From Spirochaetota bacterium (GTDB lineage: Bacteria; Spirochaetota; UBA4802; UBA5550), in the NCBI GenBank assembly GCA_050298055.1, contig JBNKTL010000008.1:1-64000 (forward strand): a stretch of 64,000 bases of DNA, in the 5' to 3' direction. Under the pieces are notes generated by a model, which did no database searches, was not told where the DNA came from, and saw only the letters and a list, made by a program, of their open reading frames with translations. Below, piece after piece: positions 17,901-64,000 of this stretch (position 1 is its first letter; every line of letters begins with the position of its first letter). A program made the position numbers and the translations under genes.

Positions 17901-20866
17901 ACGGCATGACGAAGACCTATTCATATGACAACAACTGGGACAAGACCCTTACCGTAAAGACCATCTATGACGGGAAGTCATATGAAAAGATCTTCAATGC
18001 CAGGGGACAGCTCATAAAGAAGAACGAGCCTATGGACGCGAACATCATTTACAGCTACTATCCCTCGGGAAAGCTTAAAACCATCAAGGACACCAACGGC
18101 CTCACGACCTCGGTGAGCTATGACTTGCTGGGGAGAAAAACATCCATGACCGATCCCAACACCGGGACCTGGACATACGGCTACCAGGGGACCCGCCTGA
18201 AGACCCAGACCGACGTGGCGGGGAACGTCACAAGCTACAACTACGACACCCTGGGAAGGATCTCTAACATAGACTACCAGGACAGCACCGGGAAAGCCTA
18301 TACAACTCCCGATGTCTTCTACACCTATGGTGACGGTTCAAAGAACGACCTGGGAAAGGTGTCCGGTATCATGACCAGTACCGACGGCGGGTCGACTTTT
18401 ATCTCAAAAACCACCTTTGCCTACAACATTCAGGGCGCGCCAACGGTAAAGAGAGTGGAGATGGACGGGAGAACATTCATCTTCAACATGGACTACGATG
18501 TGATGAACAGGCTTAACTCCATCACTTACCCTGACGGGAAGACAATCACCCGGGAGTACTCCGACACGGGACAGCTTGCCTCTGTGAAGTGGGGCGGGTT
18601 TCCCGTTGTGAGCTACGGGCGCTTTGAGACCGACGATGACGGTTCTATCATCAGCTATGCCAATACCATCCACAGGCTCACGGGGAACGGCGTACGGTCC
18701 GATGTAGATTATGATCCCGTTACATTACGGCCTACAAAACTTGTAACGAAAAAGGACTCCACCATCCATGAAGACCTGAACTTCAGCTATTTCAATGACG
18801 GGAAGATAAAGGAGATCCTTGATAACGATCTCACCGATGGTGTGGACTCAAAACAGACTTTCAGCTACGATGACCTGAACCGTCTCGTATCCGCCCAGGG
18901 GGCAAGCAGCGATTATATCTATGGCAGCCTCTCCTTCAACTACGACCTCAACGGGAACCTCCGGTCGAAGGACGGGAACACCCTTTACTACAACGATGCC
19001 AGCCACCCCTACGCCGTAACCGGCATCAACGGGGTGACGAAGTACCAGTACGACGCCAACGGAAACATGACAACACGGGACGGGAAGCAGCTTGTCTACG
19101 ACGCGAAGAACAGGCTTGTCCAGATCTGGAACGGGACTGTGAAGGAGGAGGAGTATGTCTACTCGTCATCGGGCCACAGGATCAAGAAGATCAAGAGCGA
19201 CGGGACGGTGACCTACAACATGGAGGGTCTCTATGAGCTGAACCTGGTCCCGGGAAGGGACGACCACTATACCAAGTATATCTTCGGCATGGACAACGAA
19301 CTTGCCGCCCAGGCAACGGAGATCAACAGCACCCTGCTCACCCTGAACACACCCTCGGTGATAAATAAATATTATAATACCGCGAGCCTCAAGGGATTTT
19401 TCCTGGCGGCCTACAGGTATTTGAACTACTTTTCAACCAGTCCCCGGATCTTAAGGATGGTCTATCTTTCTCTCCTGGCCCTCTTCTTCATATTTTTGCT
19501 CTGTGTGTTCATCTACAATCTCAGGAACAGGAGGTTCGGGTACAGGGGGATGTCCCGGTGGGTCCATCACTCCGCCTTTGCCACACTCTTTATGGTCTTT
19601 TCCGTCTTCGGGATGACAGGGTGTGAGTTGACGGACAACCTTACGGGGACCGCTCCCTGGGAGAGCCTTGACTACGAGACCGGCATTACAACCAACAATA
19701 TGCCCACCCGGGGGATGTACTTCTTCCACTCAGACTATACCGGGAACATCAGCTTTGTCACCGACAACTCCGGTGCCAAGGTGAACCAGCTCTACTACAA
19801 GCCCTACGGGGAGATCGCCATGCAGACCGGGACCGATGTGCACAGGCACAAGTACGGCTCCCAGGAGAATGACGGGAGTACGGGGCTGCTGTATTATAAG
19901 GCGCGGTTCTATGACCCGGCTGTGGGGAGGTTTATTTCTGCGGACTCAATTGTTCCGGACCCGGTAAAGAGCCAGGCTTTGAACAGGTATATGTATGTTA
20001 TGGGAAGCCCTATTGATTTTGGTGATCCAAGCGGGCATAGTTGGTTAAGTAAAACTATAGATGCAATTGGAAATGCCGTTAGTGATGCAACAGGGAGTGA
20101 TAAATTAGGTCAGGTTGTCCATGATATTATTAATACGGCAACTCTTAACAGTGCTTATGAACAAGGTGGCTGGGACAATGTTGGTTGGACCCTTGTTTCT
20201 GCAGGCATGATAACTCATACAGATGAAGGTGGTTGGGGGTTTACTTTAGGTGGGAATATACCTGGAACACCTTTCTTTGCAGGTATACATTACCAGCAGA
20301 ATGGTCAGAATAGTGGTTTTAGCTATTATTATGGTGTTGGTTTTAATGTCAATGGCATGTCCGGTGGGGCATCTTATTCCTATAATGTAAATAATGGAAA
20401 CACAACAGTGGGATTAACTCTTGGTTATGGAGGTCAATATGGACAGGCAGGTGTAACGTATAGTATTACAATGGATTCTAACGGAAGAGTTATTAATAAG
20501 GGATTATCTGGTTATGGTAAAATAAATTATCAATTATTACTCCCTACAAAAGATAATAATGAACGGATTGAAAGAGTAAAACATTATGAAGATGGAGACA
20601 GTTTTTGTTTTGGTCCTGAAGGTTCTGAAGGTGGTTGGTTGGCAATTTTTGATGTAATTGGTTTTCATGCTACTGCAGTTTTTCATGATTTTTTAGTAGT
20701 GATGGATATATTTCCTGCACATCCATCAGGAGATATATCACGATTACAAAATGAAATAGCAACTGTTGGTTTTTTGGTCGGTTATGCAGGAGGTAATATA
20801 CTTGCAGGTCAGAATTATACTTACAATCCATATTCGCAGTCTGAAGGATGGGGTTGGTCATATTAA
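14987..20866 (+). CDS. Secreted SpvB / FG-GAP / TcdB-midN / YD-RHS repeat protein (TcB-TcC-like fusion)
   Basis: Signal peptide; SpvB N-terminus (PPGTRGMAPKLSLSYNS...GKGWSL); four F(A/V)D(I/V)NGD repeats; YD repeats; RHS core GLLYYKARFYDPAVGRFISAD...DPSGH. Confidence 0.92.
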   Translation: MKTIKTSGIFFVFISLLSAAFFTTDVYANVGPDGSFNYSVDIKLPPGTRGMAPKLSLSYNSNAGNGIMGKGWSLQGLPYITRDTTYPINYNGTDKYVGPGGRLVQANDPGYTGSAVIYHTEYEGFSRFEMFGGQGGNANEPSYWVETKPDGTKYYYGYNDNSQDSQVTANDHSPCIRVWALSKVEDIYGNYYLVKYVQDNGEFYPDKIIYTLNDKGGVLKYRTVEFEYEVRSDYYKINTSNTSVQTTQRLKNVIIKTGVVDVFGVSFLGDLVRRYELTYSESSNPVFSRLTGIKEYGDDDVTFKTEEFEWQISGSSIDFWTYSGLPSTGAIKDYEHYFADINGDGRTDWIQISRLYNKSYIGLGQADGSINFWTHTNTQHDCAVNNYAHYFADINGDGRSDWIQVSRTDDVGYISLGQADGSIDFWTQYGFLVGSANGYSHYFADVNGDGRADWIQASRSSNSGCIGLGQSDGNINFWTYTGLPAGATDDYNHYFVDINGDRGSDWIQVNKNYNIGHIGLKNTPSSTAIVRVKTSLSGNINITYKPAAQMTGVIDSNESIYPVITNSTPRNLVTSITTEDGRGASYETTYAYKNGKIQTGYPQNKADLFFENITQTNPDSTKLISYYNQTGKDYAGRVSKIEKKGSDDSLIEVRDYAYSSVITTIFGTKWVKLDSETSTTYEDGEVLFSNTVTNTYDDYGNITASASTSPGSGLDPVTTEITYNRDDSRWILNRPSIITKLSNGSFTVQRQVFIYSGDYNIQKKDSVDSGTILTTYIALDAYGNPQSTTDPDGVSTTISYDSDYQTFPVKITKSGGSESIDLLKSAEYDPRYGVKLWDINANNLQTNYEYDAFGRPTEVRQGSTVLKQVEYKDFGNPDLQRVITKVFDNSTEGDSAGYHYTKEYFDGLGRKYKIVKKASGKHSLEYVTHVEFDTAGRVSKKSRPYLEGIDTRYDSVYSYDNAGRISTLTLPDGMTKTYSYDNNWDKTLTVKTIYDGKSYEKIFNARGQLIKKNEPMDANIIYSYYPSGKLKTIKDTNGLTTSVSYDLLGRKTSMTDPNTGTWTYGYQGTRLKTQTDVAGNVTSYNYDTLGRISNIDYQDSTGKAYTTPDVFYTYGDGSKNDLGKVSGIMTSTDGGSTFISKTTFAYNIQGAPTVKRVEMDGRTFIFNMDYDVMNRLNSITYPDGKTITREYSDTGQLASVKWGGFPVVSYGRFETDDDGSIISYANTIHRLTGNGVRSDVDYDPVTLRPTKLVTKKDSTIHEDLNFSYFNDGKIKEILDNDLTDGVDSKQTFSYDDLNRLVSAQGASSDYIYGSLSFNYDLNGNLRSKDGNTLYYNDASHPYAVTGINGVTKYQYDANGNMTTRDGKQLVYDAKNRLVQIWNGTVKEEEYVYSSSGHRIKKIKSDGTVTYNMEGLYELNLVPGRDDHYTKYIFGMDNELAAQATEINSTLLTLNTPSVINKYYNTASLKGFFLAAYRYLNYFSTSPRILRMVYLSLLALFFIFLLCVFIYNLRNRRFGYRGMSRWVHHSAFATLFMVFSVFGMTGCELTDNLTGTAPWESLDYETGITTNNMPTRGMYFFHSDYTGNISFVTDNSGAKVNQLYYKPYGEIAMQTGTDVHRHKYGSQENDGSTGLLYYKARFYDPAVGRFISADSIVPDPVKSQALNRYMYVMGSPIDFGDPSGHSWLSKTIDAIGNAVSDATGSDKLGQVVHDIINTATLNSAYEQGGWDNVGWTLVSAGMITHTDEGGWGFTLGGNIPGTPFFAGIHYQQNGQNSGFSYYYGVGFNVNGMSGGASYSYNVNNGNTTVGLTLGYGGQYGQAGVTYSITMDSNGRVINKGLSGYGKINYQLLLPTKDNNERIERVKHYEDGDSFCFGPEGSEGGWLAIFDVIGFHATAVFHDFLVVMDIFPAHPSGDISRLQNEIATVGFLVGYAGGNILAGQNYTYNPYSQSEGWGWSY

Positions 20867-49737: not shown

Positions 49738-50140
49738 AAAAATACTCCTTAAACTTAGAAATCATCACACTTTAATTTTGTGTAATTTGTTTGAAATTTA
49801 TTTCAAGAGATTCTTTTACCCATTTCACATTATGAATAAAAGAGATCTCTTGGAGAAAATAGTAATGATTATTGTTAAAACAATATAAAGTCTTGAACTT
49901 ACACAGAGGAAATATAGTAAATAGAATAAATTCTGTCAATAAACATTAATAGATATTTATTAATATATGTAATGAATGCTGCATGGAGTAGTGAATAACA
50001 TCGAAAAAATATTTTGTCTAAATTTCGGTCTCCACAGGATGAAAGGTTATTCTTGTTGACAATTTGCTCAATTTCCATGAAGATACTTAAGCTATGGAAA
50101 TGTAACGCTTGCTATAACGCAAATAATCCCGGGAGATCTT

Positions 50141-50644
50141 ATGGATATCAGCAGATTTCACAACCTCGATGTTATTATGCTCTGCGGCCTCTACGGTTCC
50201 GGTAAAACCGGTTTCGGAATGGTCCACTTCAGGGAGAAGGAGAGACTCAGAATCAGCAGATCGGAGATACGGAAGAACATCTACGAAATGATGCATTTCG
50301 GAAAGCCCTGGGGCCCCGGGCATTTCAATGAAGAGGATGATATCCTTGTAAAGCATATTGAGAGAAAGATGGTGGAACATTTTGCGCACCATAAAAAGAA
50401 AATACTCATTGTTAATACATTTGTCACAAGAAAGTCAAGGGAACGTACAATCAGGATCATTAAGGGCCTGAAAAAAACCGTTGGCATTATTTTTTTGAAT
50501 ACTCCTCTTGAGAAGTGTATTGAGAGAAACAGGGAGAACCCGGTCAAGGTAACGGATAATATTATTGTCAGTCTCAGTACGAAGCTCGAGCTCCCGGAAA
50601 AGAACGAGGGTTTTAACGAGATACTGGTTCTGAATGATTATTAG
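50141..50644 (+). CDS. AAA_33 / polynucleotide-kinase-like P-loop kinase
   Basis: MLCGLYGSGKT; C.ERN..; LELP..NEGF. Confidence 0.75.
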   Translation: MDISRFHNLDVIMLCGLYGSGKTGFGMVHFREKERLRISRSEIRKNIYEMMHFGKPWGPGHFNEEDDILVKHIERKMVEHFAHHKKKILIVNTFVTRKSRERTIRIIKGLKKTVGIIFLNTPLEKCIERNRENPVKVTDNIIVSLSTKLELPEKNEGFNEILVLNDY

Positions 50645-50706
50645 TGTAAAAATAACTGCATAAGCTTGGTATAAGAATAATCATATTCATGAAAAAAACA
50701 TAATTG

Positions 50707-50741
50707 ATATGTCCCCGCCGCCGACCGCGGCGGGGACATAT
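50707..50741. repeat. REP-like palindrome family A, copy 3
   Basis: ATATGTCCCCGCCGC-CGACC-GCGGCGGGGACATAT. Confidence 0.9.
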
Positions 50742-50890
50742 TGTTGATATATTAGCAAATAAATATATTTTAACTCTCTATTACCGAGTAGTTATGTGCA
50801 AAAAAAGTAAATATACTTGAAATATCAGGGGGTCTGTTTGTATTGGTTAAATCCTGATATTTTGGAATTAAATGTTAAGAGGAGATACAG

Positions 50891-51271
50891 ATGATAGAGC
50901 TCGATTTTGCAAAAGGGGAAGGGCTTGTCCCTGTTATCGCGCAGGACTTCCGGTCCGGGGAAGTTCTGATGATGGCATATGTTAACGAGGAATCGTGGAA
51001 ACTTACCCTGGAAACCGGGGTGGTCCACTACTGGAGCCGTTCGAGAAGCAAGCTCTGGAAGAAGGGGGAGTCCTCAGGAAATGTCCAGGAAGTGAAAGAG
51101 ATCAGGGTGGACTGTGACAATGATTGTGTGCTGATTAAGGTCAACCAGGTCGGTGAGGCGGCATGCCATACGGGCTTTGTAAGCTGTTTTTACAGAAAAG
51201 TGGAAGGTGATGAATTAAAGGAAGACGGGAAAAAGGCCTTCGATCCCGATGAAGTTTACGGAAAAAAATAG
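50891..51271 (+). CDS. hisI: Phosphoribosyl-AMP cyclohydrolase
   Basis: YWSRSR..LW.KGE.SGN, DCDND, ACHTG..SCF. Confidence 0.96.
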
Positions 51272-51285
51272 GAGTAGAGTTACCC

Positions 51286-52179
51286 ATGAGCAACAAGATT
51301 AAACTGGGAATTCCCAAGGGGAGCCTTGAGAAGGCGACAATAGAGCTTTTTAAAAAGGCCGGATGGAAGATATCCGTTTCCTCCCGGAACTATTTCCCTG
51401 CCATAGACGATGCTGAGATTGAATGTTCACTGATAAGGGCCCAGGAGATGGCCCACTATATTGAAAACGGGATACTCGACCTGGGGCTTACAGGTATCGA
51501 CTGGATCATGGAGAATGATTCGGATGTTGAGATCATATCCGACCTGATCTACTCAAAGGTCAGTACCCGGAAGGCACGGTGGGTCCTTGCGGTCCCGGAA
51601 GATTCGGAGATCAAGTCAGTTGAAGACTGTAAGAATAAAACAATCTCCACAGAGCTTGTAGGTTTTACAAAAAGATATTTCCAGGAGAGGGACATTCCCG
51701 TCAATGTGGAATTCTCCTGGGGGGCAACAGAGGGGAAGGTCGTTGAAGGACTGGCGGACGCTATCGTTGAGGTAACGGAAACCGGTTCAACAATCAGGGC
51801 CCACGGTTTGAAAATTATCCATACCCTCCTTGAGACAAATACCAAGCTTGCCGCGAATAAAGAGAGCGTGAAGGACCCCTGGAAAAAGAAGAAGATAAAC
51901 CAGGTTGCCCTTCTCTTAAAGGGGGCTCTCCACGCGGAGAACCTCGTGGGCATAAAGATGAATGTCCCTGAAAAGAACCTCGAAGAGGTTGTAAAGCTGA
52001 TCCCGAGCCTCAACGCGCCGACAATATCAAAGCTTTACAACAGCGACTGGCTCTCTGTTGAGTCGGTCATCGAGGAATCAGTGGTCAGGGAGATCATTCC
52101 CGGGCTTATTTCCGCGGGGGCCGACGGGATCATTGAGTATCCGTTGAACAAGGTCATCAGCACAGAAGATTTCAGCTGA
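51286..52179 (+). CDS. hisG: ATP phosphoribosyltransferase (long form)
   Basis: [33 protein letters not shown]-terminal regulatory domain. Confidence 0.96.
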
Positions 52180-52224
52180 TATTAATTTCTTGAAATTATT
52201 CCGGCGGTATGGTAATTGAATTTA

Positions 52225-52303
52225 GTTGCAAGTTATTAGTTACAAGTTACACGTTACAGGTGCCTCTTTAACTTGGAACTTGTAACTTGAAACTCGAAAC
52301 TAA
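52225..52303. repeat. Inverted heptamer tandem repeat
   Basis: 5x GTTnnnn, a short spacer, then 5x nAACTnn. Confidence 0.8.
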
Positions 52304-52326
52304 TAAATAGTATCCCGGAATAGCTG

Positions 52327-53061
52327 ATGAAGTTTTATAAAAAGAGATACCCCTGTATACTGCTCATTTTACTCATACTCACCGCGTATTATCCTCCTGT
52401 CACAATGGGTGAGAATAATGCCGGGGAGAGAGTTGTCATATCCTCGTTCACCACATCCGTTACTCACCAGAGCTTTGAGGTAAAACAGAACATTTCAATT
52501 GCCTGCGGCAGGCTTGACGGGACACTCCTTGCTCCCGGGAAGGTCTTTTCATTCAATGAAACAGTGGGTGAGGGTTCACCGGCAAACGGGTTCTCTTCGG
52601 GACAGGTCCTTTACATGGATGAAACCAGAATGGAACCGGGGGGCGGGCTCTGCCAGGTCTCGTCCACACTCTTTAATGCCCTTCTTGCGGCGGGATTCAG
52701 GGTGGTTGAACGGCACAGGCATTACCAGCCTGTTTCCTATGTTCCCCTGGGTCTGGACGCTACCATCAAATACGGGAAGAAGGACCTCAGGGTGCAAAAT
52801 CCCCACCACCAGACCATGCAGATTGTTACCTATATGAATGAGAAGAGCCTGGTCATCAAGATAACCGGTGACAGGAAGCTCAGGTACAGGTATCTCATCG
52901 ACACGGAAGAAGAGGACCTGGAGATACCCTTCTCTGAAAAGAGGGACATCATCAGGAACGGCCTGGTGGTCTATGTTTACCGGAAAAAATTCAGGGGAAA
53001 CAGGTTCATGGAGAGCTTCCTTATCCACAAGGACTTCTATCCCCCTGTTTACAGAAAATAA
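52327..53061 (+). CDS. VanW-family exported protein
   Basis: FSFNETVG, GGGLCQVSSTLFNA, ERHRH, YVPLGLDATI, DLR..N. Confidence 0.92.
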   Translation: MKFYKKRYPCILLILLILTAYYPPVTMGENNAGERVVISSFTTSVTHQSFEVKQNISIACGRLDGTLLAPGKVFSFNETVGEGSPANGFSSGQVLYMDETRMEPGGGLCQVSSTLFNALLAAGFRVVERHRHYQPVSYVPLGLDATIKYGKKDLRVQNPHHQTMQIVTYMNEKSLVIKITGDRKLRYRYLIDTEEEDLEIPFSEKRDIIRNGLVVYVYRKKFRGNRFMESFLIHKDFYPPVYRK

Positions 53062-53063
53062 TT

Positions 53064-53711
53064 ATGAGAAAAAAAACCGGGACTATCATACTCCTTCTTT
53101 TTTTCCTGGCGGCACAGGGCAGACCGGTTACCGGTTCTTCTTATGCTGGACTTGAAAAGTGGGAGAAATATGCCGCATCTTCCGGTGCGGCCAGGATGCT
53201 CTCCTGGGCCAGAGAACTGGTGATGAAGGAACTGGACCGCAGTCTCACCACCCGGAAGAAAAGCAGAGAGAATGAATTTCCGGACAACTCTCCTCCTTTT
53301 TTCGGGAGGCTTGGTCTCTTTGTGACATTTGTCAAAGAGGGCCGTGTGCGGGGATGTTACGGCGCGTTTCAACACAGGAGTCATGACCTGAGGTCGGTAC
53401 TCACTTCTTACATCAGGGGGGCCCTGAGATATGATCCCCGGTACAGGCCCCTGGGAATTGAAGAAGCGGGGGACGCTGATATTATCATAACCATCGCTTC
53501 TCAGCCCCTCATGGTAAATGATCTCTACAGTGTGGATATATCACGATACGGAATTGTCTTTACCCTTGAAAACGGTGTAAGCCTGGTATTTGTACCATCA
53601 GAGATAAAGACCCACAATTACCTGGAGAGGAAACTTGGGAAAAGAAGGCCTTCAGGAATTTCTGCCTTCAGGGCAGTGACAATTAAAGCAAGCAGAGGAG
53701 ATGCCAGATGA
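53064..53711 (+). CDS. AMMECR1-domain protein with signal peptide
   Basis: GLFVTF.K.G.VRGCYG, DPRYRPL, YGIVF...FVPS; hydrophobic N-terminus. Confidence 0.8.
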   Translation: MRKKTGTIILLLFFLAAQGRPVTGSSYAGLEKWEKYAASSGAARMLSWARELVMKELDRSLTTRKKSRENEFPDNSPPFFGRLGLFVTFVKEGRVRGCYGAFQHRSHDLRSVLTSYIRGALRYDPRYRPLGIEEAGDADIIITIASQPLMVNDLYSVDISRYGIVFTLENGVSLVFVPSEIKTHNYLERKLGKRRPSGISAFRAVTIKASRGDAR

Positions 53712-56700
53712 ACCGTACGATTTTCAGATTAGCGACAGTGACTCTTTTGGCGGCAGCAGTTTCATGCGCCTCCGTAACAATGAATAAGAGGGAGGGCGGT
53801 GCCCGGCTGTATAAAAAGAATAAGGGGGCATCCCTCAGTGAAGAGAAGAGTATAAAGGGAAAAATTATTAACAGCAAGAACAGGAAACCGGTCCCCGGCG
53901 CCCGGGTTGAGGTGAAGAATGCCAATATGGGTATCGGGTATTATCTCACAAAGAGTGATTCGGAGGGCAGCTTCAGGATCGATAATTTTATTCCGCAGCT
54001 CAGTTACATTGTAGAAGTTGAAGCTGAAGGTTATGTGAGCTACAGGTCAAGCGGGGGGATAAGTCCCGGTGAGCAGAAGATCTATCTTGATCCCGAATCG
54101 ATTATCAGGGGACAGGTCACCGACAGCGGAGGGAGGCCCCTGAAAGGCGTGGATGTAAAGATTAAAAAAGGATACAGCTACCGGTATTCCTCCTTCAAAC
54201 CTCTTATTACCAAAACAGACAGCACGGGAGCTTACAGCTTTAACAAGATCCCCGAGGGAAGGTATTATGTATTCTTTGAGAAGCCGGGCTACATCTCAGA
54301 ATCCGTGAGTCTGAAATATATCAGGAAGGGTGAAAGTTTCAGCCTTCCCATGAGACTCTACAGGCCCGCCGGCATAAGCGGGAAGATCGTTATCCAGGGA
54401 TTTGATGTCCCCGCAGTGGACGTAAACGTGACCGCCCGGGGAGCACGGAACCACTCCGCGTCCACCTTCCAGGACGGCACATTCCAGCTGGTTGACCTGA
54501 AGCCGGGAAAGTATAAACTGAGTGTGACCCACGAGGGGTTCTATACCATAAAAACTCCCGTTCTTTATATCCGTGAAGGATCGGAAAATAAAAACTACAA
54601 CTTTACGGTCAAGCCGAAACCTCCCGAAGTCAAGGTCTACTCCTACAGGTACACCTTTGCCCCGGGAAACAAGGTGAGCTTCAACCTCAGGACATTCAGG
54701 CTTGAAAACGTAAAGGCCACTGTTTACAGTGTTCCGGTGGAGACCTTTCTCAGGGGAAAATCAGACCCCGGTGATATCGACCCTGAAAAGGAAAAGTTCA
54801 GGGTCAAGACCGGGTGGGACGAACCCGTGAGGGACTTCAAACCCTACCAGTGGAGGTACCAGACCCTGGATGTGAAGGAGCCCCTGCCCACAGGGGGGTA
54901 CTGCATGGAAGTACGGGGTGCCGGCAGGGTCATAGACAGGAAGTTCTTTACCGTCACATCGGTGGGTGTGGTCTTTAAGAGGTCCCGCTACTCGGTCTAT
55001 TCTTATGTCACCAACCTGGTTACCAATAAGCCGGTTCCCGGGGCGGATGTTGTTGTTTTTGATTCAACACCGGTGAAAAAGAGGTACAGGTATACAAGTT
55101 ATACTTACAAGGCCCCCAAGAGGATCGAAGAGCTCCCGGTAAGGATCGTGGGGAGGGGCAAAACCGATGAATCGGGGATATTCAACCGGAAACTTACCAC
55201 GGACAAGCACCTGTCGGTCCTTGCCATCAGCGGCGACGGCAGCTACGCCCTGACCAGTACCGGTTCCCCTGCCGCCTTTCAGAGGGAGAGGATCAAGTAC
55301 ATGGTCTATACGGAACGGCCGGTCTACAGGTCGGGGGACACTGTCTACTACAAGATCATCGGCAAGAAGAGGAACAGGAAGTTCACCCCGCTCTCGGGAA
55401 ACAGGCTTTATTACCAGATCAGGAACCAGGACAACGGCAAGGAGCTTGATAAGGGAAGTGTGAAGCTCGATGACTGGGGGACCGCGCATGATAAGATAGA
55501 GATCAAACAGAGATACGGCCTCGGTGTATACGAGATAAGGGTGGGTCCCTCCCTGAAGAACCTCTACGCCTCGGGGCACTTTTATGTTGAGGAATACAGG
55601 AAGCCGGAGTTTAAAATTGATATTAAGCCTTCAAATTCCTACTATATAAACGGTGATACCGTGGAGTTCAAGGTTGAGGCCAAGTATTTTTTCGGCGCGC
55701 CGCTGAAGAACGGCCTGGTGAGATACAGGTTCTATGAAACGAGACTGAGGGACACCGATACGGTCTACTGGTGGGAGGAGGATTCGCCCTCTCAATCATA
55801 CAGCAGGCTGAAGCTGGAGGGTGAGCGGTATCTTGACAACAACGGGGTCATGGCGCTCCGGGTCCATTCCGGTAACGTGCCCTATGACAGGGAAATCACC
55901 CTGGAGGCAACCATAACCGACCAGTCAAATATCAGCATTACCTCCCGGGGAAAGGTCCGTGTGGGAAGGGGAGAGTTCTATATCAAGATCAACCCGAAGC
56001 AGAACTTCTTTGCCAGCAACGAGAAGAAGAAGGAGATAGAGATACGGACTCTCTCCCAGGACGGGAAACCTGTTCCCGCGCGGCTTGACCTGAAACTCTT
56101 CAGGTATATCTGGAAACCCTACCAGCGGATCTATGTCCATGAGAGGAGGCCCTACCTGACCCGGACCATCAGTACCGATACCGCCGGAAAGACGGTTGTG
56201 AGGTTCCCGGAGAACTTCATGTCCTACGGAGAGTTCGATATTGTTGTTTCCGGGACTGACAGGAGAAACAACCTGGTCACCGCGTCCCGGGTGGTGTGGA
56301 TCTACAACTACAGGGGAGGCAGCGTGGCTTCCCGGTTCAAGAACCTTGAACTCTCCGTAAACAGGAAGAGTCTTCAGAAAGCGGGGGAGCTGACCTGTCT
56401 TTTAAAATCCAAGTACCCTGACGGCTATGTTCTCATCACCCTTGAAGGGAAGGACATCTACTGGACAAAGGTTGTAAAGCTCAAGGGGAACATCACACCG
56501 GTAAAGATCCCCGTTAAGGAAGATTATGCCCCCAACTTTTACCTCACCGCGGCCATGCAGAGGAAAAGGGCCCTCTATACACGGACCGTGGGAATATCCA
56601 TTCCCCAGCAGGACACGGGCCTCAGGATTACCATGAAACCGGGAAAGGAGAAATATCTTCCCGGTGAAAAGGCCCGTGTGAATATAAAGGTGACCGATGA

Positions 56701-59077
56701 GAGGAACAGGCCCCTGGAGGCCGACCTCTCCCTGGGGGCGGTGGATGAGTCCATCTACTACGTGAGGCCGGACCATACGCCGAGGATGAAGGACTTCTTC
56801 TACGCGAAAATATCCAACTGGGTCCTCACCGGTTACTCCTATCCCATTACCGTCCTTGCGGGTGCCGCCAAGGAGGGGAAGGTCAAGGTCAGGGAGAAAT
56901 TCGAGGACACGGCCTTCTGGAAAGCGGACATTCGGACAGACAGGTCGGGGAGGGCGCGGGTAGACTTTACCCTTCCCGATAACCTTACAACCTGGAGGCT
57001 CACTGCCCGGGGACATGATAAGAGAGGACGTGTGGGCGAGAAGAAAAGGAAGTTCCTGGTAACACAGGACCTTATCGCGCGTATAGGGAAACCGAGGTTC
57101 ATGATAGAGAAGGACGATCTTTCATTGATCAGCATCGTCACCAGCAATACCAAAAGGGGTCTGCCCGGGATAGATATCGATCTCAGGGTTGACGGGAAGA
57201 CGGTACCCCCTGCCGACAGGGGGAAGATCAGCCTCCCCGGATTCGGCTCCGCGAGAAAGTACCATAAGGTCACTGTCCCGGAAAAGAGGGATGAAAGTGT
57301 CGTTCAGCTCACGGCCAGGGGTGATGCCCGGGCAAAGGACGCCCTGAAGATAAAGATCCCCGTGGAAAAGAGGGGGGCCGCTTACAAGCTCTTCGGGCTG
57401 GGGGATTTCACCGCCAACAGGAAGATAGAGCTTGAAGCAATGAAGAAGAGCAATGACTTTACCTTTGTTCCCGAGAGGGTCACCCTCTCCCTCAATCCTT
57501 CGCCCCTTCAGAAGATGCTTAAGGCCACAAAGTTCCTGGTTGAGTATCCCTACGGCTGTGTTGAACAGACCATAAACAGGTTCATTCCCCTTCTCGCTGT
57601 GAACAGGCTGATCCGTGACAGCAGGTATTCGGGGCTTGTGAGCAATATCAGCAGCGGGAAACTGGACAGCATGGTGCGCGCGGGGATATCACGGCTCCAG
57701 GTTGCGCAGAACTCAGACGGCAGCTGGGGCTGGTGGGGAGGTGACAGGGGCAACGAGTTTATCACCGGCTATGTCCTCTATTCCCTGAAACTGGCAAAGG
57801 ACTTCGGGTATGATGTGAGTAATGATACTGTCAAGAGAGGGACAGGGGCCGTGGGCAGGATGCTGCGTTCGGGGAACCGGATGAGTAACGACGCCAGGGC
57901 TTTTCTCCTCTCTGTCTACTCCCTCTGGGGGTACTGGAACGCGGATGCCTACCTGAGGCTTATGGGCACGAAAAGGTCCGTCTATTCCACTGCTTTCCTC
58001 CTCAGGTCTGTTGCAACGGTAAAGGGAGACCTGTTTAAAAGAAAATCGGCGGTTGCGGGAAGCAGGGAGTCTGTTCTCAAAAAGCTTGCCGGGGAGATAA
58101 AGGAGAAGAGGAAAATGGATTCCCGGGGAATATACTGGCAGGGGAGAAGGGAACAGAGATGGGGCTGGCCGGGAAGCAGGACCGAGATATCCGCCCATGT
58201 GCTTGCCGCCCTGGTTGAGGCCGGCGACAGGTCCCCGGTAAGCTCTCAAATCGTCAGTTCTCTCTCAAAAAGGTCCCGGGGGAGCTACTGGAGGACAACC
58301 AAGGAGACGGCAACGGTTATCCTTGCCCTCTATGACTATATGAAGAAGAGGAAGGGGAGTGTGGGCGGACCGGCGGATGTAAAGTTCAGCGTTAACGGAA
58401 AACCGGCGGCCGAACTGAAATATGATCCCGAAACAAAAACCCGTCCCGGCGATCTCATCAAAACCGTAAAACTCTCCGGCAGCGGGGAAAAGGGAAAGGT
58501 GGTGGTTAACGCCGCCGGTAAAGCGGGAAGTGACGCCAGCTACGACGTGACGGTCTCCGGGACCCTTTACTTTAATCCCTCGGGGTTTCTCTCTTTCTTT
58601 AAGTCCGAAAAGAAGGGACTGGACCTTCTCTCCAACGGGATCAAACTCTTCAGGAGTTTCGAGGGGATCACCCGGGTCAAAGACATGAGGAGAAACGAGT
58701 ACCTTGTCCCGGGCAGGCTCTCGTCATCAAAGGAGATAAAGGTGGGCGACCAGCTCCTGGTAAAGGTGAGGTTCCGGGCCGCCGATGACTTTGAATATCT
58801 TGTGCTTGAAGACTATCTGCCCTCTGGATTTGAAGTCATAAAAAAGGACGCCTATAACAACTACCAGCCCTATGTCCGCTCCGAGAGGTGGGACAACAGG
58901 ATGGTCTATTTCTTTAACAATGTATCAAAGGGGAAGGTCTATGAGATCGCCTATATTATCAGGGCGGAGCTTCCCGGCAGGTTCATGGTCAGGCCCGCCA
59001 GGATGGAGTGCATGTATGATCCCGAGATACAGGGCTGGTCATCACCGACGATTATTGAAGTAAAAAAGAAAAAATGA
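53708..59077 (+). CDS. Bacterial alpha-2-macroglobulin lipoprotein with N-terminal carboxypeptidase-regulatory-like repeats
   Basis: Lipobox AVSC; TERPVYRSGD, VEEYRKPEF, VREKFEDTAFW, LPDNLTTW, thioester GCVEQ, EDYLPSGFE, MYDPE. Confidence 0.95.
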   Translation: MNRTIFRLATVTLLAAAVSCASVTMNKREGGARLYKKNKGASLSEEKSIKGKIINSKNRKPVPGARVEVKNANMGIGYYLTKSDSEGSFRIDNFIPQLSYIVEVEAEGYVSYRSSGGISPGEQKIYLDPESIIRGQVTDSGGRPLKGVDVKIKKGYSYRYSSFKPLITKTDSTGAYSFNKIPEGRYYVFFEKPGYISESVSLKYIRKGESFSLPMRLYRPAGISGKIVIQGFDVPAVDVNVTARGARNHSASTFQDGTFQLVDLKPGKYKLSVTHEGFYTIKTPVLYIREGSENKNYNFTVKPKPPEVKVYSYRYTFAPGNKVSFNLRTFRLENVKATVYSVPVETFLRGKSDPGDIDPEKEKFRVKTGWDEPVRDFKPYQWRYQTLDVKEPLPTGGYCMEVRGAGRVIDRKFFTVTSVGVVFKRSRYSVYSYVTNLVTNKPVPGADVVVFDSTPVKKRYRYTSYTYKAPKRIEELPVRIVGRGKTDESGIFNRKLTTDKHLSVLAISGDGSYALTSTGSPAAFQRERIKYMVYTERPVYRSGDTVYYKIIGKKRNRKFTPLSGNRLYYQIRNQDNGKELDKGSVKLDDWGTAHDKIEIKQRYGLGVYEIRVGPSLKNLYASGHFYVEEYRKPEFKIDIKPSNSYYINGDTVEFKVEAKYFFGAPLKNGLVRYRFYETRLRDTDTVYWWEEDSPSQSYSRLKLEGERYLDNNGVMALRVHSGNVPYDREITLEATITDQSNISITSRGKVRVGRGEFYIKINPKQNFFASNEKKKEIEIRTLSQDGKPVPARLDLKLFRYIWKPYQRIYVHERRPYLTRTISTDTAGKTVVRFPENFMSYGEFDIVVSGTDRRNNLVTASRVVWIYNYRGGSVASRFKNLELSVNRKSLQKAGELTCLLKSKYPDGYVLITLEGKDIYWTKVVKLKGNITPVKIPVKEDYAPNFYLTAAMQRKRALYTRTVGISIPQQDTGLRITMKPGKEKYLPGEKARVNIKVTDERNRPLEADLSLGAVDESIYYVRPDHTPRMKDFFYAKISNWVLTGYSYPITVLAGAAKEGKVKVREKFEDTAFWKADIRTDRSGRARVDFTLPDNLTTWRLTARGHDKRGRVGEKKRKFLVTQDLIARIGKPRFMIEKDDLSLISIVTSNTKRGLPGIDIDLRVDGKTVPPADRGKISLPGFGSARKYHKVTVPEKRDESVVQLTARGDARAKDALKIKIPVEKRGAAYKLFGLGDFTANRKIELEAMKKSNDFTFVPERVTLSLNPSPLQKMLKATKFLVEYPYGCVEQTINRFIPLLAVNRLIRDSRYSGLVSNISSGKLDSMVRAGISRLQVAQNSDGSWGWWGGDRGNEFITGYVLYSLKLAKDFGYDVSNDTVKRGTGAVGRMLRSGNRMSNDARAFLLSVYSLWGYWNADAYLRLMGTKRSVYSTAFLLRSVATVKGDLFKRKSAVAGSRESVLKKLAGEIKEKRKMDSRGIYWQGRREQRWGWPGSRTEISAHVLAALVEAGDRSPVSSQIVSSLSKRSRGSYWRTTKETATVILALYDYMKKRKGSVGGPADVKFSVNGKPAAELKYDPETKTRPGDLIKTVKLSGSGEKGKVVVNAAGKAGSDASYDVTVSGTLYFNPSGFLSFFKSEKKGLDLLSNGIKLFRSFEGITRVKDMRRNEYLVPGRLSSSKEIKVGDQLLVKVRFRAADDFEYLVLEDYLPSGFEVIKKDAYNNYQPYVRSERWDNRMVYFFNNVSKGKVYEIAYIIRAELPGRFMVRPARMECMYDPEIQGWSSPTIIEVKKKK

Positions 59078-59092
59078 GTGATTGCCACAGAG

Positions 59093-59286
59093 GCTCATCT
59101 CGATACGATCCTGCTCATCGAGTAGCCAGGAAATGGCATGTCGAAATGCAGGATCACTCGATGAGCATCTTATGTTCCCCGAGTGATTTGCCGCTTTATT
59201 AATACAGTGCTTTATGCTCTTTATAAGGAGCGGCAAATTGTATCGAGGGGAACAGATCATTACGTCACTTCGTTCCTCATGATGAC
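59093..59286. repeat. Structured REP-like intergenic element (two opposed hairpins)
   Basis: Stems 59093-59114/59148-59166 and 59173-59195/59229-59254 share TCGATAC and CACTCG motifs in opposite orientation. Confidence 0.65.
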
Positions 59287-59360
59287 AGTTTCTTTAATTC
59301 GGAACTATCTATAGCCGCATTTATCTGCGGTAAAATTTATTTTTATGAAATAAATTGTTT

Positions 59361-61433
59361 ATGAAAAAAACAGTTCTTATTCTTCTTCTCTTTCTTATCT
59401 CCGGGGGGGGAGCTCCCGGGAATGACGAATATTCAGCTCATTTCCCGGGACACCAGAGATCGGTAAAGATCGGCATTCTCTCGAAACAGCTGAGGCTTAT
59501 CAGGGAGAAGGGAGGGGGGATCCTGATATTTACCGCAAAGAACCCCCTTACTCTCTATGAACTTTCCACCGGGACCCTCTCTGAAACCGAATCTATAAAA
59601 CTGGCCTATGAACAGGGCTCCTGGAGGTTATGGGCGGGAGATATGCAGCCTGCCGGAAAGTTCAGCCTCCTGGTAAAAAAAACAGAAATGTCCGGTTCTC
59701 TGAAAGTGAAGATCGGCAACGAACTGAGGCGCTACCCTCTCCCCCTCACCATTACCCGGGGGGGAAAAGACCCCCTGGTAACCGTTACGGAAGAGATCAG
59801 CCGTTACTCCCTGGATTCCGCCCTGGCAGAGTATGGTGCCAGGTCTCCCCTCGAGTATGAAGCGGTGGATGCCCTGGCCCGGATCATTGAAGCCAGGGGC
59901 CTTATGGGCCTGAAAAATCCCCGCCATAAAGGGTATCACTTCTGCGACCTGACCCACTGCCAGGTCTACAGGGGCAGGAAGGGAAAAAAGGGACCCGCGC
60001 CGCCTCCCTTTTACGGCAGATGGCGGATTGACCTGAAGGGGCTGAAAAACCCTCTCCTCTTTCATTCATCCTGCGGGGGCAGGACCTTCGGACCGGAACT
60101 CTTCGCGTCGGAGCCCCCATACATGTACAGGGGGGTAAAGGACTTTCTCTACAGGGAAAACCTTCTGCTCTGCCGAAACGGCAATTCATACTGGGAGAGG
60201 ATTCTTCCCAGGGATGAAATCTTCCATATCCTGAAGCTTAAGGGCTGCTCTCCGGGAAGGGCCGGGAATTTCCTTGAATACGGGAGGAAAAAACTGCAGG
60301 TGAAGGTCCGCTGCGGGGAGAGGGAAGTGAATTATCCCCCGGAAAACTTCAGGATAAGGATCAACAGGGTGAAGGGGTGGAGCTTTATCAGGAGCAATAA
60401 CTATACGGTGCAGAGAGGAAAGGGTCAGGGAGAACTCCTCCTCAGAGGTTACGGGCTGGGGCACGGTTCCGGTTTCTGCCAGACGGGGGCCCTGGAGCTT
60501 TCCCGGAGGGGATATTCCGCGTCTGAGATTATCCGGCACTACTATCCTGATATTAATCTTGTTTCCCTTACCGGGGAAGATGACAGGTCCTCTGACATCT
60601 CGTACGCCCTCTTCGACCTCTCCACGGGGAGGATACGGGTATCAACCTCACCGTCACTGGTAAAGAGGAGGTTCCCTCCCGGTTCCCTCTGGAAGCTTGT
60701 GACCTCCCTCTACCTTGCCGGGGAGAGGCAGGACCTCCTGAGGGACTACCGGTATACCTGTACCGGGAGCGGGGGAGACGATCCCCGGCTTCCCGAAAGG
60801 TGCTGGAAGAGGGAAGGCCACGGGAACCTGGATTTCCGGGCGGCCCTTTCAGGTTCCTGTAATCTCTATTTCGCGTCCCTCTCCCGTGTCATCGATTTCA
60901 GGCGGTACAGGGAATTTGTTGAAAGACTTTTAAGGGACCTTGGAATAGCCGCTGAGATTCCCGGGATAAAAACAAAGAAAGATGAGGCACAATTCCTGGC
61001 GGGCCTCGATTTCAGGATAAGTCTCGGGATAAAAGACCTCATAAAGATCGTTGCCCTTTTTCAGCCTGTTGAGAGTAATAATAAACGTGTAAGGAAGGTC
61101 CGGAACTCTCTTCCCCTCCCGGCCAGGGACTCAATACTGGAAGCCCTTCACGGGACTTTCATCCACGGCACTGCGGCATTTCACCGGGAAAGGGAGAAAC
61201 CCGGTCTGCTGAAAAAACAGCTCATCTTCAGCGGGAAGAACGCTGAATTATTGAAGAAAAAGAGTGACGGTATCTGGGGCAAGACATCAACGGTCATCGA
61301 CGGTACCAACAGGCCCGTAAGTTACGGGATTTTCCTGGGAGCATCTGAAAATACCGGTATCATCCTCTTTTTAAAAAACGGCAACGGGCATAACGCGGCA
61401 AAATGGGGAAAGGTCATTCTCCTTGATAAATGA
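59361..61433 (+). CDS. SpoIID/LytB-domain protein fused to a penicillin-binding transpeptidase-like domain
   Basis: SpoIID: ALAE, FCDLTHCQVY, FHSSCGG, GHGSGFCQTGA, IIRHYYP. PBP: PPGSLWK, SCN, GKTST. Signal peptide present. Confidence 0.85.
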   Translation: MKKTVLILLLFLISGGGAPGNDEYSAHFPGHQRSVKIGILSKQLRLIREKGGGILIFTAKNPLTLYELSTGTLSETESIKLAYEQGSWRLWAGDMQPAGKFSLLVKKTEMSGSLKVKIGNELRRYPLPLTITRGGKDPLVTVTEEISRYSLDSALAEYGARSPLEYEAVDALARIIEARGLMGLKNPRHKGYHFCDLTHCQVYRGRKGKKGPAPPPFYGRWRIDLKGLKNPLLFHSSCGGRTFGPELFASEPPYMYRGVKDFLYRENLLLCRNGNSYWERILPRDEIFHILKLKGCSPGRAGNFLEYGRKKLQVKVRCGEREVNYPPENFRIRINRVKGWSFIRSNNYTVQRGKGQGELLLRGYGLGHGSGFCQTGALELSRRGYSASEIIRHYYPDINLVSLTGEDDRSSDISYALFDLSTGRIRVSTSPSLVKRRFPPGSLWKLVTSLYLAGERQDLLRDYRYTCTGSGGDDPRLPERCWKREGHGNLDFRAALSGSCNLYFASLSRVIDFRRYREFVERLLRDLGIAAEIPGIKTKKDEAQFLAGLDFRISLGIKDLIKIVALFQPVESNNKRVRKVRNSLPLPARDSILEALHGTFIHGTAAFHREREKPGLLKKQLIFSGKNAELLKKKSDGIWGKTSTVIDGTNRPVSYGIFLGASENTGIILFLKNGNGHNAAKWGKVILLDK

Positions 61434-61506
61434 CCCGGTGTTTATATGTACACATAACTGAAGAGAGTTTCCGGTAATATATGAATTATAACCAGGAATA
61501 ACAACA

Positions 61507-61541
61507 ATGTGTTCCCGCCGCCGAAGGCGGCGGGAACACAT
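61507..61541. repeat. REP-like palindrome family A, copy 4
   Basis: ATGTGTTCCCGCCGCC-GAA-GGCGGCGGGAACACAT. Confidence 0.9.
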
Positions 61542-61742
61542 CAGTTCTGTTTTTTAATAGAGAATATTATTAGTGAGTAATTTTTATAAAAATTTTTGTA
61601 TTGACGTATTATTGAAAAATGCTTATATTTATAATCATACAACAACAGATAACAAACATATATGAAAAGATCACTCCGTGCCTTGGCGGCAGGGAGATAT
61701 CAATGGTGTTTTGATAGATTCTGAAATGAGAAGGGGGATGAG

Positions 61743-63293
61743 GTGAGAGAGCTATTTGTTGTTCTGTTATCAGTTTTTTTTCTCGGTTTAACGGCCTGCG
61801 AGAGGTCATCTGTGATATACAACTCCTTTCAGGAATCAGTGGACGCGGAGATTGCCTCCCTGGACGCGGCGGATTTTACCTATACGGGGGCCGATAACCG
61901 GGACCACATTACCGATGACTTTACTCTCCCCACAACAGGCAGAGAAGGGACCACCATAACATGGACCAGCAGTCATCCCCAATATGTGATTGTGACCGGT
62001 GGAAACGCCGATGTGATTGCCCGCCCCGCTTACTTTGAAGGGGACTTTAAGGTGACCCTTACGGCAACGGTGAGTGTTGAGGGTGCCAGCGGGACAACGG
62101 AGATTGTTGTTGTGGTTGCCGCCGAAGAAACGCACATGATAACTCAAAAATATGTATCAGATCCCTCTGTTCAGGTAGGTGACAATTTCGGATACAGTGT
62201 ATCCATCAGCGGGGATCATGTCATAGCAGGTGTTCCCTATCAGGATCTCGGTGGCTTAACTACTGATGAATACGGTGCGGCCTATATCTTTGAGCGGAAC
62301 ACATTAGGTAACTGGAACCAGGTTCAAAAACTCAATGCCACTCCCTACAATCCAGGTGATGAATTTGGTTGCAGTGTGGCCGTCAGCGGAGACTATGCCA
62401 TTGTGGGAGCTCATAATAATGATGATTATGGGAATAATGCCGGATTAGCCTATATCTTTGAGCGGGACATAGGGGGAACATGGAACCAGGTTCAAATACT
62501 TTATGCTTCTAATTACGATGTTGATGACGAATTTGGTTACAGTGTGGCCATCAGCGGAGACTATGCCATTGTTGCTGCTTATAATTATAGCGGTTCTTCC
62601 GGCGCAATATATATTTTTGAGCGGGAAGGGGGCACCTGGAATGAAAAACAAACATTTACGGCTGAATCTGGTGGTGATTATTATGGAGAAAGTGTCTCCA
62701 TAAGCGGGAATTATGCTATTGTAGGAGCTTACTTTCATGATCCCGGTGGCGTATCTAACGCCGGAGCAGCCTATATCATTGAGCGGGACGCGGGGGGAAA
62801 CTGGAACCAGGTTCAAAAACTTACTGCCGATATTCCCGCTGTGAATGAGAACTTTGGCAATAGTGTTTCCATCAGCGGAAATTATGCCATTGTGGGCGCT
62901 TTTCAAAATATTGATTTGGGGTTTCAGGCCGGTGCGGCCTATATTTTTGAGCGGAACACATCAGGAAACTGGAACCGGGTTCAAAAACTCACTGCATCTA
63001 ATGGAGGGATTAATGACCGGTTTGGCACCAGTGTATCCATCAACAGGGGCTTTGCCGTAATAGGGGCTCCTTATGAAGATGACATAAGCAATAATGATAA
63101 TGGCGCAATATATGTTTTTAAGCGTAACAACAGCGGCAGCTGGTATGAAGATAAGATCATTCGGGCATCTCCGGAAGAGGATGATGCTTATTTTGGCTTT
63201 TATGTATCTATCAGTGAAGACTCTGTTATTGTGGGCGCTCACATGGAAGACAGCGGTGCAACAGATGGCGGTGCGATCTATATATTGTATTAG
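61743..63293 (+). CDS. Lipoprotein with an Ig-like domain and seven FG-GAP repeats (beta-propeller)
   Basis: Lipobox LTAC; LPTTG..GTTITWTSS Ig-like motif; repeated FG.SV.ISG..AIVGA...GAAYIFER. Confidence 0.88.
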   Translation: MRELFVVLLSVFFLGLTACERSSVIYNSFQESVDAEIASLDAADFTYTGADNRDHITDDFTLPTTGREGTTITWTSSHPQYVIVTGGNADVIARPAYFEGDFKVTLTATVSVEGASGTTEIVVVVAAEETHMITQKYVSDPSVQVGDNFGYSVSISGDHVIAGVPYQDLGGLTTDEYGAAYIFERNTLGNWNQVQKLNATPYNPGDEFGCSVAVSGDYAIVGAHNNDDYGNNAGLAYIFERDIGGTWNQVQILYASNYDVDDEFGYSVAISGDYAIVAAYNYSGSSGAIYIFEREGGTWNEKQTFTAESGGDYYGESVSISGNYAIVGAYFHDPGGVSNAGAAYIIERDAGGNWNQVQKLTADIPAVNENFGNSVSISGNYAIVGAFQNIDLGFQAGAAYIFERNTSGNWNRVQKLTASNGGINDRFGTSVSINRGFAVIGAPYEDDISNNDNGAIYVFKRNNSGSWYEDKIIRASPEEDDAYFGFYVSISEDSVIVGAHMEDSGATDGGAIYILY

Positions 63294-63322
63294 GCTGTTT
63301 GCTTCTATAATATAAGTATTTC

Positions 63323-63637
63323 AATATCCTCTCCAACAAAATTTCTGCGGTATTCCGGTTCGAGGCAAAAGACTTTGCGGATATATATATGATCGCGAAA
63401 AACCGGCAGTTCAATTGGGAAGAAATAGTCACTGAAGCAAAAATGAAAGAAGCCGCAGTTGATCCCATTGAATTGTATAATATTCTTCAAGCAATACCTT
63501 CCGATGCCATAAGCTCCATAAGATGTACCTCTTCTTTTGATAGTGCTCACATAAAGCGGGAACTGGCTGTTATCGCGGAGGATATCTTTAAAAGTACTGA
63601 AAATTCATTAAATGATGGTTCCCATGTGCCTGGTTAA
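63323..63637 (+). pseudogene. 5'-truncated AbiEii-like nucleotidyltransferase toxin remnant
   Basis: In frame upstream of the listed ORF: NILSNKISAVFRFEAKDFADIY (K...R...KD..D motif); an in-frame stop lies just upstream and the N-terminal half is missing. Confidence 0.65.
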
Positions 63638-63746
63638 TGCTGAATTCAAAACTAACCCCAACCGATAATTTTTTCTATTGACGTCTCTTTTGATCGGTAT
63701 GATCTTGTGGCAGAAACATGATTATCTTTAAAAAGGACTATTGCCT

Positions 63747-64000
63747 GTGATATTGACCCAGAGACCTCCCGTGGAAGACCTTCAAAAACTGGGAATCCCC
63801 TTTCAGAACAAAGTGGGTGCCTCCCGTAAAGTAAACAACCTCATTGAGGAGCTCAGTCATCCCAACATTGACTGGAAAACCGCCGTGGGGGAGATCAGGT
63901 CGTATCTCTTTGACTACATCCATGAGATCGCCCCGGAGGGTCCTGATATCCTCCCCATACTTTTCTACTTTCTCTACGAGGCAACGGCCCGGAAAAAGGG
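63747..64000 (+). CDS. Partial CDS, possibly the N-terminus of a large PEP/pyruvate-binding (PPDK-like) protein
   Basis: GTG start with SD AAGGA, open to the window end (MILTQRPPVEDLQKLG...LIEELSHPNIDWKTAVGEIRSYLFDY); product call is a weak resemblance only. Confidence 0.55.
   Translation, partial: MILTQRPPVEDLQKLGIPFQNKVGASRKVNNLIEELSHPNIDWKTAVGEIRSYLFDYIHEIAPEGPDILPILFYFLYEATARKK

Follow-up and report, generated by a model that had tools for sequence, protein, structure and literature searches.

Bacterial alpha-2-macroglobulins (A2Ms) have been assigned to two genomic contexts, reportedly defined by Budd et al. in 2004. In type I, for which the Escherichia coli yfhM (ECAM)-pbpC pair can stand, a trap combined with repair was proposed earlier (PMC5764988; PMC4498604). 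In type II, that of the E. coli yfa and Pseudomonas aeruginosa mag operons, the DUF1175 protein YfaT/MagC has been described as an NlpC/P60-like protein that is inactive and binds peptidoglycan (PMC10318531), the 100-kDa form of the macroglobulin MagD is absent without MagC (PMC5764988), and the mag operon protects P. aeruginosa against VgrG3 and Tae1, wall-targeting type VI secretion system (T6SS) effectors (PMC12663445).

The present work deals with four neighbouring genes, encoding a VanW protein, an AMMECR1 protein, a thioester-bearing A2M and a fusion of SpoIID-like and transpeptidase domains, at positions 52327..61433 of a 64,000-nt stretch (the window) of contig JBNKTL010000008.1 from a Spirochaetota bacterium (GCA_050298055.1). 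The module apparently constitutes a conserved and undescribed variant of the yfa/mag system. In literature searches that left subscription journals mostly outside and did not cover supplements, no description of this gene arrangement was found, and among the papers listed by a full-text search none named both a macroglobulin and VanW; an earlier mention of thioester-bearing yfa-type A2Ms may nonetheless exist.

The macroglobulin and the fusion protein

The genes and the motifs on which the argument rests are the following:

52327-53061, plus strand: VanW gene, 244 aa (Pfam VanW, E 1e-43)
53064-53711, plus strand: AMMECR1 gene, 215 aa (Pfam AMMECR1, E 3e-16)
53708-59077, plus strand: A2M gene, 1789 aa (Pfam MG2, BRD, A2M, TED and bMG10)
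56840..56893, plus strand: A2M bait loop Y1045-R1062, from alignment to ECAM R941-N963 (ECAM numbering from PMC4498604)
57557..57568, plus strand: A2M thioester motif C1284-V-E-Q1287, from the sequence
59355-61433, plus strand: SpoIID-transpeptidase gene, 692 aa when read from TTG (Pfam Transpeptidase, E 3e-5; SpoIID, E 0.04)
about aa 35-405 of the fusion: SpoIID-like predicted lytic transglycosylase half, with E159, C197 and C202
about aa 412-692 of the fusion: class-B-like transpeptidase half, with S444xxK447, S501-C-N503, K643-T644 and the zinc tetrad C469/C483/H489/C502

An earlier note, made from the letters of this DNA, had proposed four co-oriented genes of these families, and four intact reading frames are found there, with the families assigned by Pfam; the 2-nt spacing of VanW and AMMECR1, the ATGA overlap of AMMECR1 and A2M, and the CxEQ motif of the latter (CVEQ at 1284-1287) are likewise present. 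The export signals that it assigned to all four proteins were assessed with a hydrophobicity heuristic and, for the A2M, through an N-terminal lipobox-like cysteine as well. For the fusion gene, the ATG at 59361 is a likelier start than the TTG at 59355.

The A2M carries three N-terminal CarboxypepD_reg repeats followed by MG domains, the bait, the thioester domain and MG10. Its Cys20, which by inspection follows a hydrophobic stretch in a lipobox-like setting, has a counterpart in 17 of 19 sequences, and the protein is a predicted lipoprotein. The C, E and Q of the thioester motif are invariant (27/27 A2Ms), and YPYG and xMY, the tyrosine motifs that shield the thioester, are retained as they are in trap-type A2Ms (PMC4498604).

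YfaS is a better match to the window A2M than YfhM is, with 164 bits as compared with 99. In a 26-row IQ-TREE phylogeny, two gammaproteobacterial YfaS rows nest with the window clade (SH-aLRT 95) and five PbpC-linked rows stand apart (SH-aLRT 99; 94 in a 57-row FastTree phylogeny, for which 28 loci, mostly of Acidobacteria, were left out of 79 rows for thinning and six named rows were added). Both trees are without a eukaryotic root or an AU test; the former suggests that E. coli YfaS, which has no thioester, is nested within a broad clade of thioester-bearing macroglobulins to which the window A2M belongs.

The second line of evidence comes from the adjoining fusion protein. Its weak Pfam domains are confirmed by profile comparison against the PDB (Clostridioides difficile PBP3, E 3e-14; SpoIID, E 4e-12), and its AlphaFold model (pLDDT 84) is matched by Foldseek to both the SpoIID and the penicillin-binding protein (PBP) transpeptidase folds. 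Across 81 homologues, S444, K447, S501, N503, K643 and T644 never vary; the zinc tetrad is kept in 80-81 of them, E159 in 79, and C197 and C202 in 80, while the third residue of the KTx motif is S in 49, A in 23 and G in 9. The alignment of the SpoIID half to the structure 5i1t covers the His/Cys segment and the GHG motif and begins after E159, the presumed catalytic Glu of SpoIID.

Both BLASTP (E 2e-5) and a profile (17 and 27 bits, the best of 500 shuffles reaching 1.8) relate the transpeptidase half to the N-terminal part of E. coli YfaQ, and the SpoIID half was aligned by hhalign at 99.9% to an alignment of two YfaQ and four YfaQ-order proteins. In YfaQ the SpoIID domain lies C-terminal to the transpeptidase-like domain; the window protein is therefore a YfaQ/MagE homologue with its domain order reversed. 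E. coli YfaQ itself (L046:6152-7798), annotated as a tandem DUF2300 protein, reads as a degenerate transpeptidase followed by SpoIID and a C-terminal HExxH segment; small HExxH proteins also occur 3′ of the A2M in Deinococcota loci. The SpoIID-first order was met in five loci, all of spirochaetes, of the 80-locus survey described below. Among the best 150 matches of the fusion profile, taken from a library that carries no organism names, full-length proteins of the same order form one high-scoring block, and 15 lower matches in several stretches have SpoIID on the C-terminal side. Those homologues that bear names are labelled Spirochaetes or Spirochaetota.

Two genomes of the same order carry yfaT, a thioester-intact A2M, yfaP, a stand-alone transpeptidase, a stand-alone SpoIID and a 217-aa HExxH protein in succession (L048:5162-13956 in genome G038; L049 in genome G032), and the existence of transpeptidase and SpoIID as separate genes would offer a route to either order of fusion. 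G038 further holds an A2M of the window type, standing by itself, and elsewhere VanW paired with AMMECR1.

The earlier note's interpretation thus holds in part. Synteny, a thioester A2M whose adjoining gene is a SpoIID-transpeptidase and not PBP1C, the peptidoglycan theme and the absence from the literature found all stand. Its statement that the locus fits neither known context is not supported, in view of the grouping of the A2M with the YfaS type and not with PbpC-linked A2Ms, the domain-swapped YfaQ, and the sister A2Ms in near-canonical yfa operons.

VanW, AMMECR1 and the two partner kits

VanW domains have been reported to be L,D-transpeptidases with a Cys-His-Asp triad (PMC11348318), which strengthens the peptidoglycan theme. 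The window protein has a hydrophobic N-terminus and a stand-alone VanW domain, its sole Pfam domain; C109, H132 and D144, invariant in 15/15 homologues, were matched to the published triad by conservation, and the protein is a predicted L,D-transpeptidase. It is the single VanW of a 98%-complete genome in which no YkuD-type enzyme was matched. A VanW profile search found no solved VanW structure.

The AMMECR1 protein carries the RGChG and DxRa motifs, proposed as the AMMECR1 active site (PMC2034487), and its model has the duplicated RAGNYA fold (against 1zq7: Z 11.3, rmsd 6.2, 168 residues aligned). Residues R96, G97, C98, G100, D124, R126, P178 and E180, which make up the RGCxG, DxR and PxE motifs, are kept in 120/120 homologues, 111 of which have a hydrophobic N-terminus by the heuristic. 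The probably exported form is a subfamily of its own (E<1e-40, whereas ordinary AMMECR1 proteins give >1e-18 and two matches fall in between), present in 47 genomes of a 401-genome sample of the phylum; 46 lie within the order of the window organism, and the lone outlier (G307) likewise carries VanW-AMMECR1-A2M. A role in RNA modification seems unlikely outside the cytoplasm. No AMMECR1-A2M fusion was seen among longer proteins (two matches, both Memo fusions; a weak test) or within the N-terminal 450 residues of the A2M frames covered by the survey. A complex prediction for AMMECR1 (26-211) with A2M 870-1640, the sole pair tried, scored 0.00, which is evidence neither way.

The distribution of partners was surveyed by scanning GTDB genomes with two A2M patterns; of more than 590 matching stretches, the 80 most similar to a yfa-type spirochaete A2M were retained. 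Because one pattern contains the thioester, its prevalence in this set is partly by construction; Acidobacteria are over-represented and many loci end at contig edges. The 80 loci contain YfaT in 33 cases, YfaP in 5, VanW in 15, AMMECR1 in 13, SpoIID in 32, a transpeptidase in 34, and PbpC and YfaA in none. VanW and/or AMMECR1 occur in 19 loci, and never together with YfaT: the two kits are mutually exclusive in this set. AMMECR1 lies immediately 5′ of the A2M in all 13 loci that have it. The VanW/AMMECR1 kit extends to Armatimonadota, Abditibacteriota, Sericytochromatia, Obscuribacterales, a cyanobacterium, Omnitrophota, Geobacter and Spirochaetota. In the window genome DUF1175 (YfaT/MagC) gave no match, and YfaA and YfaP are absent from the locus, the one place where these two were sought.

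Several other proteins accompany surveyed A2Ms. In Armatimonadota and Abditibacterium a very hydrophobic protein of 450-650 aa, with no Pfam match and no named family, stands directly 5′ of the VanW-kit A2M, in the AMMECR1 slot; six of the seven match each other by BLAST (L125 does not), and the protein is a candidate MagB-like membrane anchor:

L108:1338-3023, L112:5587-7290, L125:340-1707, L133:1836-3407, L146:4330-5277, L158:3206-4930, L165:5365-7311: hydrophobic protein in the AMMECR1 slot

Acidobacteria loci (L096:12882-13649, L099:12780-13544, L124:9064-9930 and others) have a conserved membrane protein of about 255-300 aa, without a Pfam match, between the A2M and the YfaQ-order fusion. 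One locus (L113:7602-19669) holds two tandem thioester A2Ms with an OmpA-domain gene between them, and in a Deinococcus locus (L176:2293-7805) an A2M without a CxEQ match is preceded by a C39 peptidase gene.

Among closer kin, a full-length A2M orthologue (47-63% identity; three split over contigs) is present in 25 of 40 relatives. The module is co-inherited: VanW is found in 24 of these 25, and the full fusion in 18 of them as against 0 of the 15 others. The synteny recurs in other genomes. Of the A2M loci examined, which come from 22 of the 25 relatives, nine hold all four genes, nine three, two two and two the A2M alone, and all four genes are also together in 10 of a further 20 loci picked by AMMECR1 matches; a non-adjacent VanW usually sits elsewhere in the genome. 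In one genus, 14 genomes were covered by both searches: VanW and exported AMMECR1 are both present in nine and both not found in five. A single-protein scan of viral contigs gave no relative.

Three different dispersed, many-copy repeat families flank or interrupt the locus (59092-59290, 52222-52306 and 61497-61572), and two of their elements deserve a separate mention:

59092..59290: dispersed, hairpin-rich repeat of about 200 bp in the gap between the A2M and fusion genes, without an Rfam match
61505..61543: strong GC-rich hairpin after the fusion gene, of a many-copy repeat family, possible terminator

The former has 33 genome-wide matches at E<1e-10, 12 of them of at least 150 nt (window copy counted), and is not a conserved part of the system. 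Since the A2M-fusion gap is at most 10 nt in 16 of the 24 relatives' loci carrying both genes (starts assigned heuristically), the 283-nt gap of the window suggests a recent insertion within a series of coupled genes. No Rfam family was matched in 50000-64000. Neither the hisI-hisG genes upstream nor the FG-GAP protein downstream is accepted as part of the module, since the flanks vary among relatives; the latter (61743-63293, 3′ of the hairpin), which is not conserved beside the locus, has one Ig-like domain and seven FG-GAP repeats and is predicted to be a lipoprotein. Farther away, 14987-20866 encodes a 1959-aa protein with an SpvB-like N-terminus and FG-GAP and RHS repeats, which resembles a carrier of the polymorphic-toxin type.

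The bait loop and the possible role of the module

We favour, with moderate confidence, the reading that the locus is a thioester-keeping yfa/mag variant working as a periplasmic trap-and-repair module, which would guard the cell wall against proteases and wall-degrading enzymes. The A2M, probably membrane-anchored, would capture intruding proteases, or peptidases that degrade the wall, by a covalent bond, its thioester forming and then firing upon bait cleavage as family knowledge predicts. Nearby, the partners predicted to cut and cross-link the wall would pare down damaged peptidoglycan and join it anew: by analogy with their families, SpoIID would cut glycan strands, the SxxK domain would make 4-3 cross-links and VanW 3-3 cross-links. 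The likely secreted AMMECR1 may be an accessory cysteine enzyme. From their context, VanW and AMMECR1 could occupy the slot of YfaT/MagC, and the attackers could be enzymes of competitors or predators. The closest functional evidence is, by analogy, the protection afforded by mag against VgrG3 and Tae1.

A number of points weigh against this reading. The 57-row tree places YfaS on a long branch just outside the 48-row clade, with a path distance from the window A2M about equal for YfaS and YfhM. The full-length fusion is unmatched in 7 of the 25 A2M-bearing relatives (two of them fragmented or incomplete), so it is dispensable, and the four genes are often unlinked. The counts among relatives overstate the case because kin are not independent: they bear witness to co-inheritance, not to many separate events. 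MagE was located in the cytoplasm and outside the Mag complex (PMC3735191), and of seven foreign VanW proteins three were active and four without activity (PMC11348318). A short and conserved bait poorly suits a broad-spectrum trap, and every functional step is inferred.

The bait is also the starting point of the leading alternative, which we regard as unlikely, namely that the enzymes act on the A2M itself: VanW would take K1055 of the bait as acyl acceptor and couple it to a stem peptide of peptidoglycan, as other L,D-transpeptidases do with Lpp. The wall fragment would be provided or trimmed by the SpoIID-transpeptidase, and the trap would then serve as decoy or sensor for wall hydrolases. 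A column comparison of one kit against the other pointed to A2M residues 1045-1055, and in AMMECR1-kit A2Ms G1052 is kept in 27/27 and K1055 in 26/27, the latter being among only three of 167 Lys columns conserved at 90% or more in these 27 A2Ms. The length of the bait differs between the kits. Between fixed anchors it measures 20-21 aa, with a Lys, in 38/38 spirochaete orthologues and 19-29 aa, again with a Lys, in 12/12 VanW-adjacent A2Ms; in 30/30 YfaT-linked A2Ms it measures 38-46 aa, about double (these counts exclude eight anchor-missing stretches, L103, L159, L170, L176, L192, L193, L195 and L196, L192 and L170 having been judged by eye). Six short-bait A2Ms without an adjacent VanW (L108, L109, L115, L133, L154, L166) come from genomes with a VanW elsewhere, which groups with the operon VanWs of the nearest kin of the A2M, and of five genomes tested from the branch with long baits, four linked to YfaT and one lacking listed partners, four gave no VanW match. 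In a genome with two A2M paralogues, the short Lys bait belongs to the one adjacent to VanW and a 35-aa bait to the AMMECR1-only one. Furthermore, L,D-transpeptidases are known to link proteins to the wall (PMC12729407), and the blocking of a glycan hydrolase by MagD (PMC12663445) is more than a plain protease trap would account for.

Nevertheless, the association of bait and VanW comes down to two or three independent events, with two supported contrasts (sign test, p 0.5), and one A2M with VanW (L167) has a 29-aa bait. YfaT-kit baits hold a Lys too, 4-16 residues before the anchor in 30/30, and that of ECAM, which contains Gly-Gly-Asp and Lys, is similarly short; a short bait with a Lys could accordingly be an ancestral trait or no more than a cut site of the trypsin type. 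A side-chain tether gives no evident way to fire the thioester, and protein attachment by a VanW enzyme is not known from the cited literature. The related idea that the bait Lys is lost after genomic loss of VanW is weakened by the two genomes in which an AMMECR1-only A2M has a long bait: both retain VanW, in one of them beside a second A2M, and one such long bait (L164) still contains a Lys.

A more specific version, which we consider quite unlikely, would have VanW attach the stem peptide to the bait Lys so that a wall-baited trap catches T6SS or predator hydrolases and not ordinary proteases, with AMMECR1 as a cysteine enzyme of the priming pathway. If true, it would explain how Mag-type A2Ms block wall-targeting effectors and would give AMMECR1 its first substrate.

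Housekeeping remodelling of the wall, with VanW as the sole recognisable L,D-transpeptidase, the fusion as hydrolase-transpeptidase and the A2M as scaffold or regulator instead of defence trap, is a decidedly improbable explanation. The single VanW of a nearly complete genome without a YkuD match and the stable single-copy inheritance across the order would agree with it; however, the thioester is invariant, and the whole set was not found in 15 of the 40 relatives, several more than 90% complete, which fits an accessory function. As for a surface adhesin whose thioester would bind foreign surfaces covalently, the wall enzymes merely aiding its display, the three extra N-terminal CarboxypepD_reg/transthyretin-like repeats could make a stalk and the bait is short, but the repeats are absent from the shorter sister A2M examined (about 1500-1550 aa) and the shielding motifs are those of trap-type A2Ms (PMC4498604), so this reading is very improbable indeed.

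Comparison with described systems

The locus bears on several questions. It offers a handle on how MagD protects against wall-targeting T6SS effectors, and through it a predicted VanW L,D-transpeptidase and a probably exported AMMECR1, of a family without a known reaction in the cited literature, become connected with a single candidate substrate and a single residue, K1055. Moreover, as the swapped version keeps all transpeptidase motifs, testable activities can be assigned to YfaQ/MagE. The division of bacterial A2Ms into type I and type II looks incomplete, given a large thioester clade that spans many phyla and includes the yfa/mag lineage; since that lineage sits inside thioester-bearing A2Ms, its loss of the thioester looks derived.

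Taken one by one, the partners have relatives elsewhere. With C. difficile Ldt4 and Ldt5 (PMC11348318) the window VanW shares a domain with invariant Cys, His and Asp, yet it is a stand-alone protein of about 240 aa, from a diderm phylum and tied to an A2M. The AMMECR1 protein has the fold (1zq7) and the RGChG and DxRa motifs of AMMECR1 or AmmeMemoRadiSam protein A; unlike the latter, it has a hydrophobic N-terminus and an A2M for neighbour in place of radical SAM and Memo genes. The fusion resembles the C. difficile zinc-binding PBPs PBP3 and SpoVD (PMC9334274), with the Cys-Cys-His-Cys(SCN) tetrad aligned residue for residue, and the C. difficile SpoIID (5i1t), in its His/Cys segment and GHG motif, but it joins the two domains in one chain and lacks the class-B pedestal domain. 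With respect to E. coli YfaQ, which has SLWK, SCG and KTW, it keeps all three PBP motifs intact and is without the C-terminal HExxH segment.

At the level of the whole system, the locus shares with type I (E. coli yfhM/ECAM-pbpC and Salmonella Sa-A2M) a CxEQ lipoprotein A2M, with its lipobox Cys, beside a gene of penicillin-binding type, and the same logic of trap and repair (PMC5764988; PMC4498604). It differs in that its A2M falls on a branch separate from the PbpC-linked ones (SH-aLRT 99) and that no pbpC adjoins it, the partner being SpoIID with a class-B-like zinc transpeptidase and not the glycosyltransferase-transpeptidase PBP1C. With type II (P. aeruginosa magABCDEF; E. coli yfaA-yfaT-yfaS-yfaQ-yfaP) it shares the YfaS lineage of the A2M, the adjoining YfaQ/MagE homologue and several exported partners in one run. 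In contrast to that type, the window A2M keeps the thioester and the lipobox Cys, both absent in MagD (PMC3735191), and its neighbours are VanW and AMMECR1 instead of YfaA/MagB, YfaT/MagC and YfaP/MagA,F.

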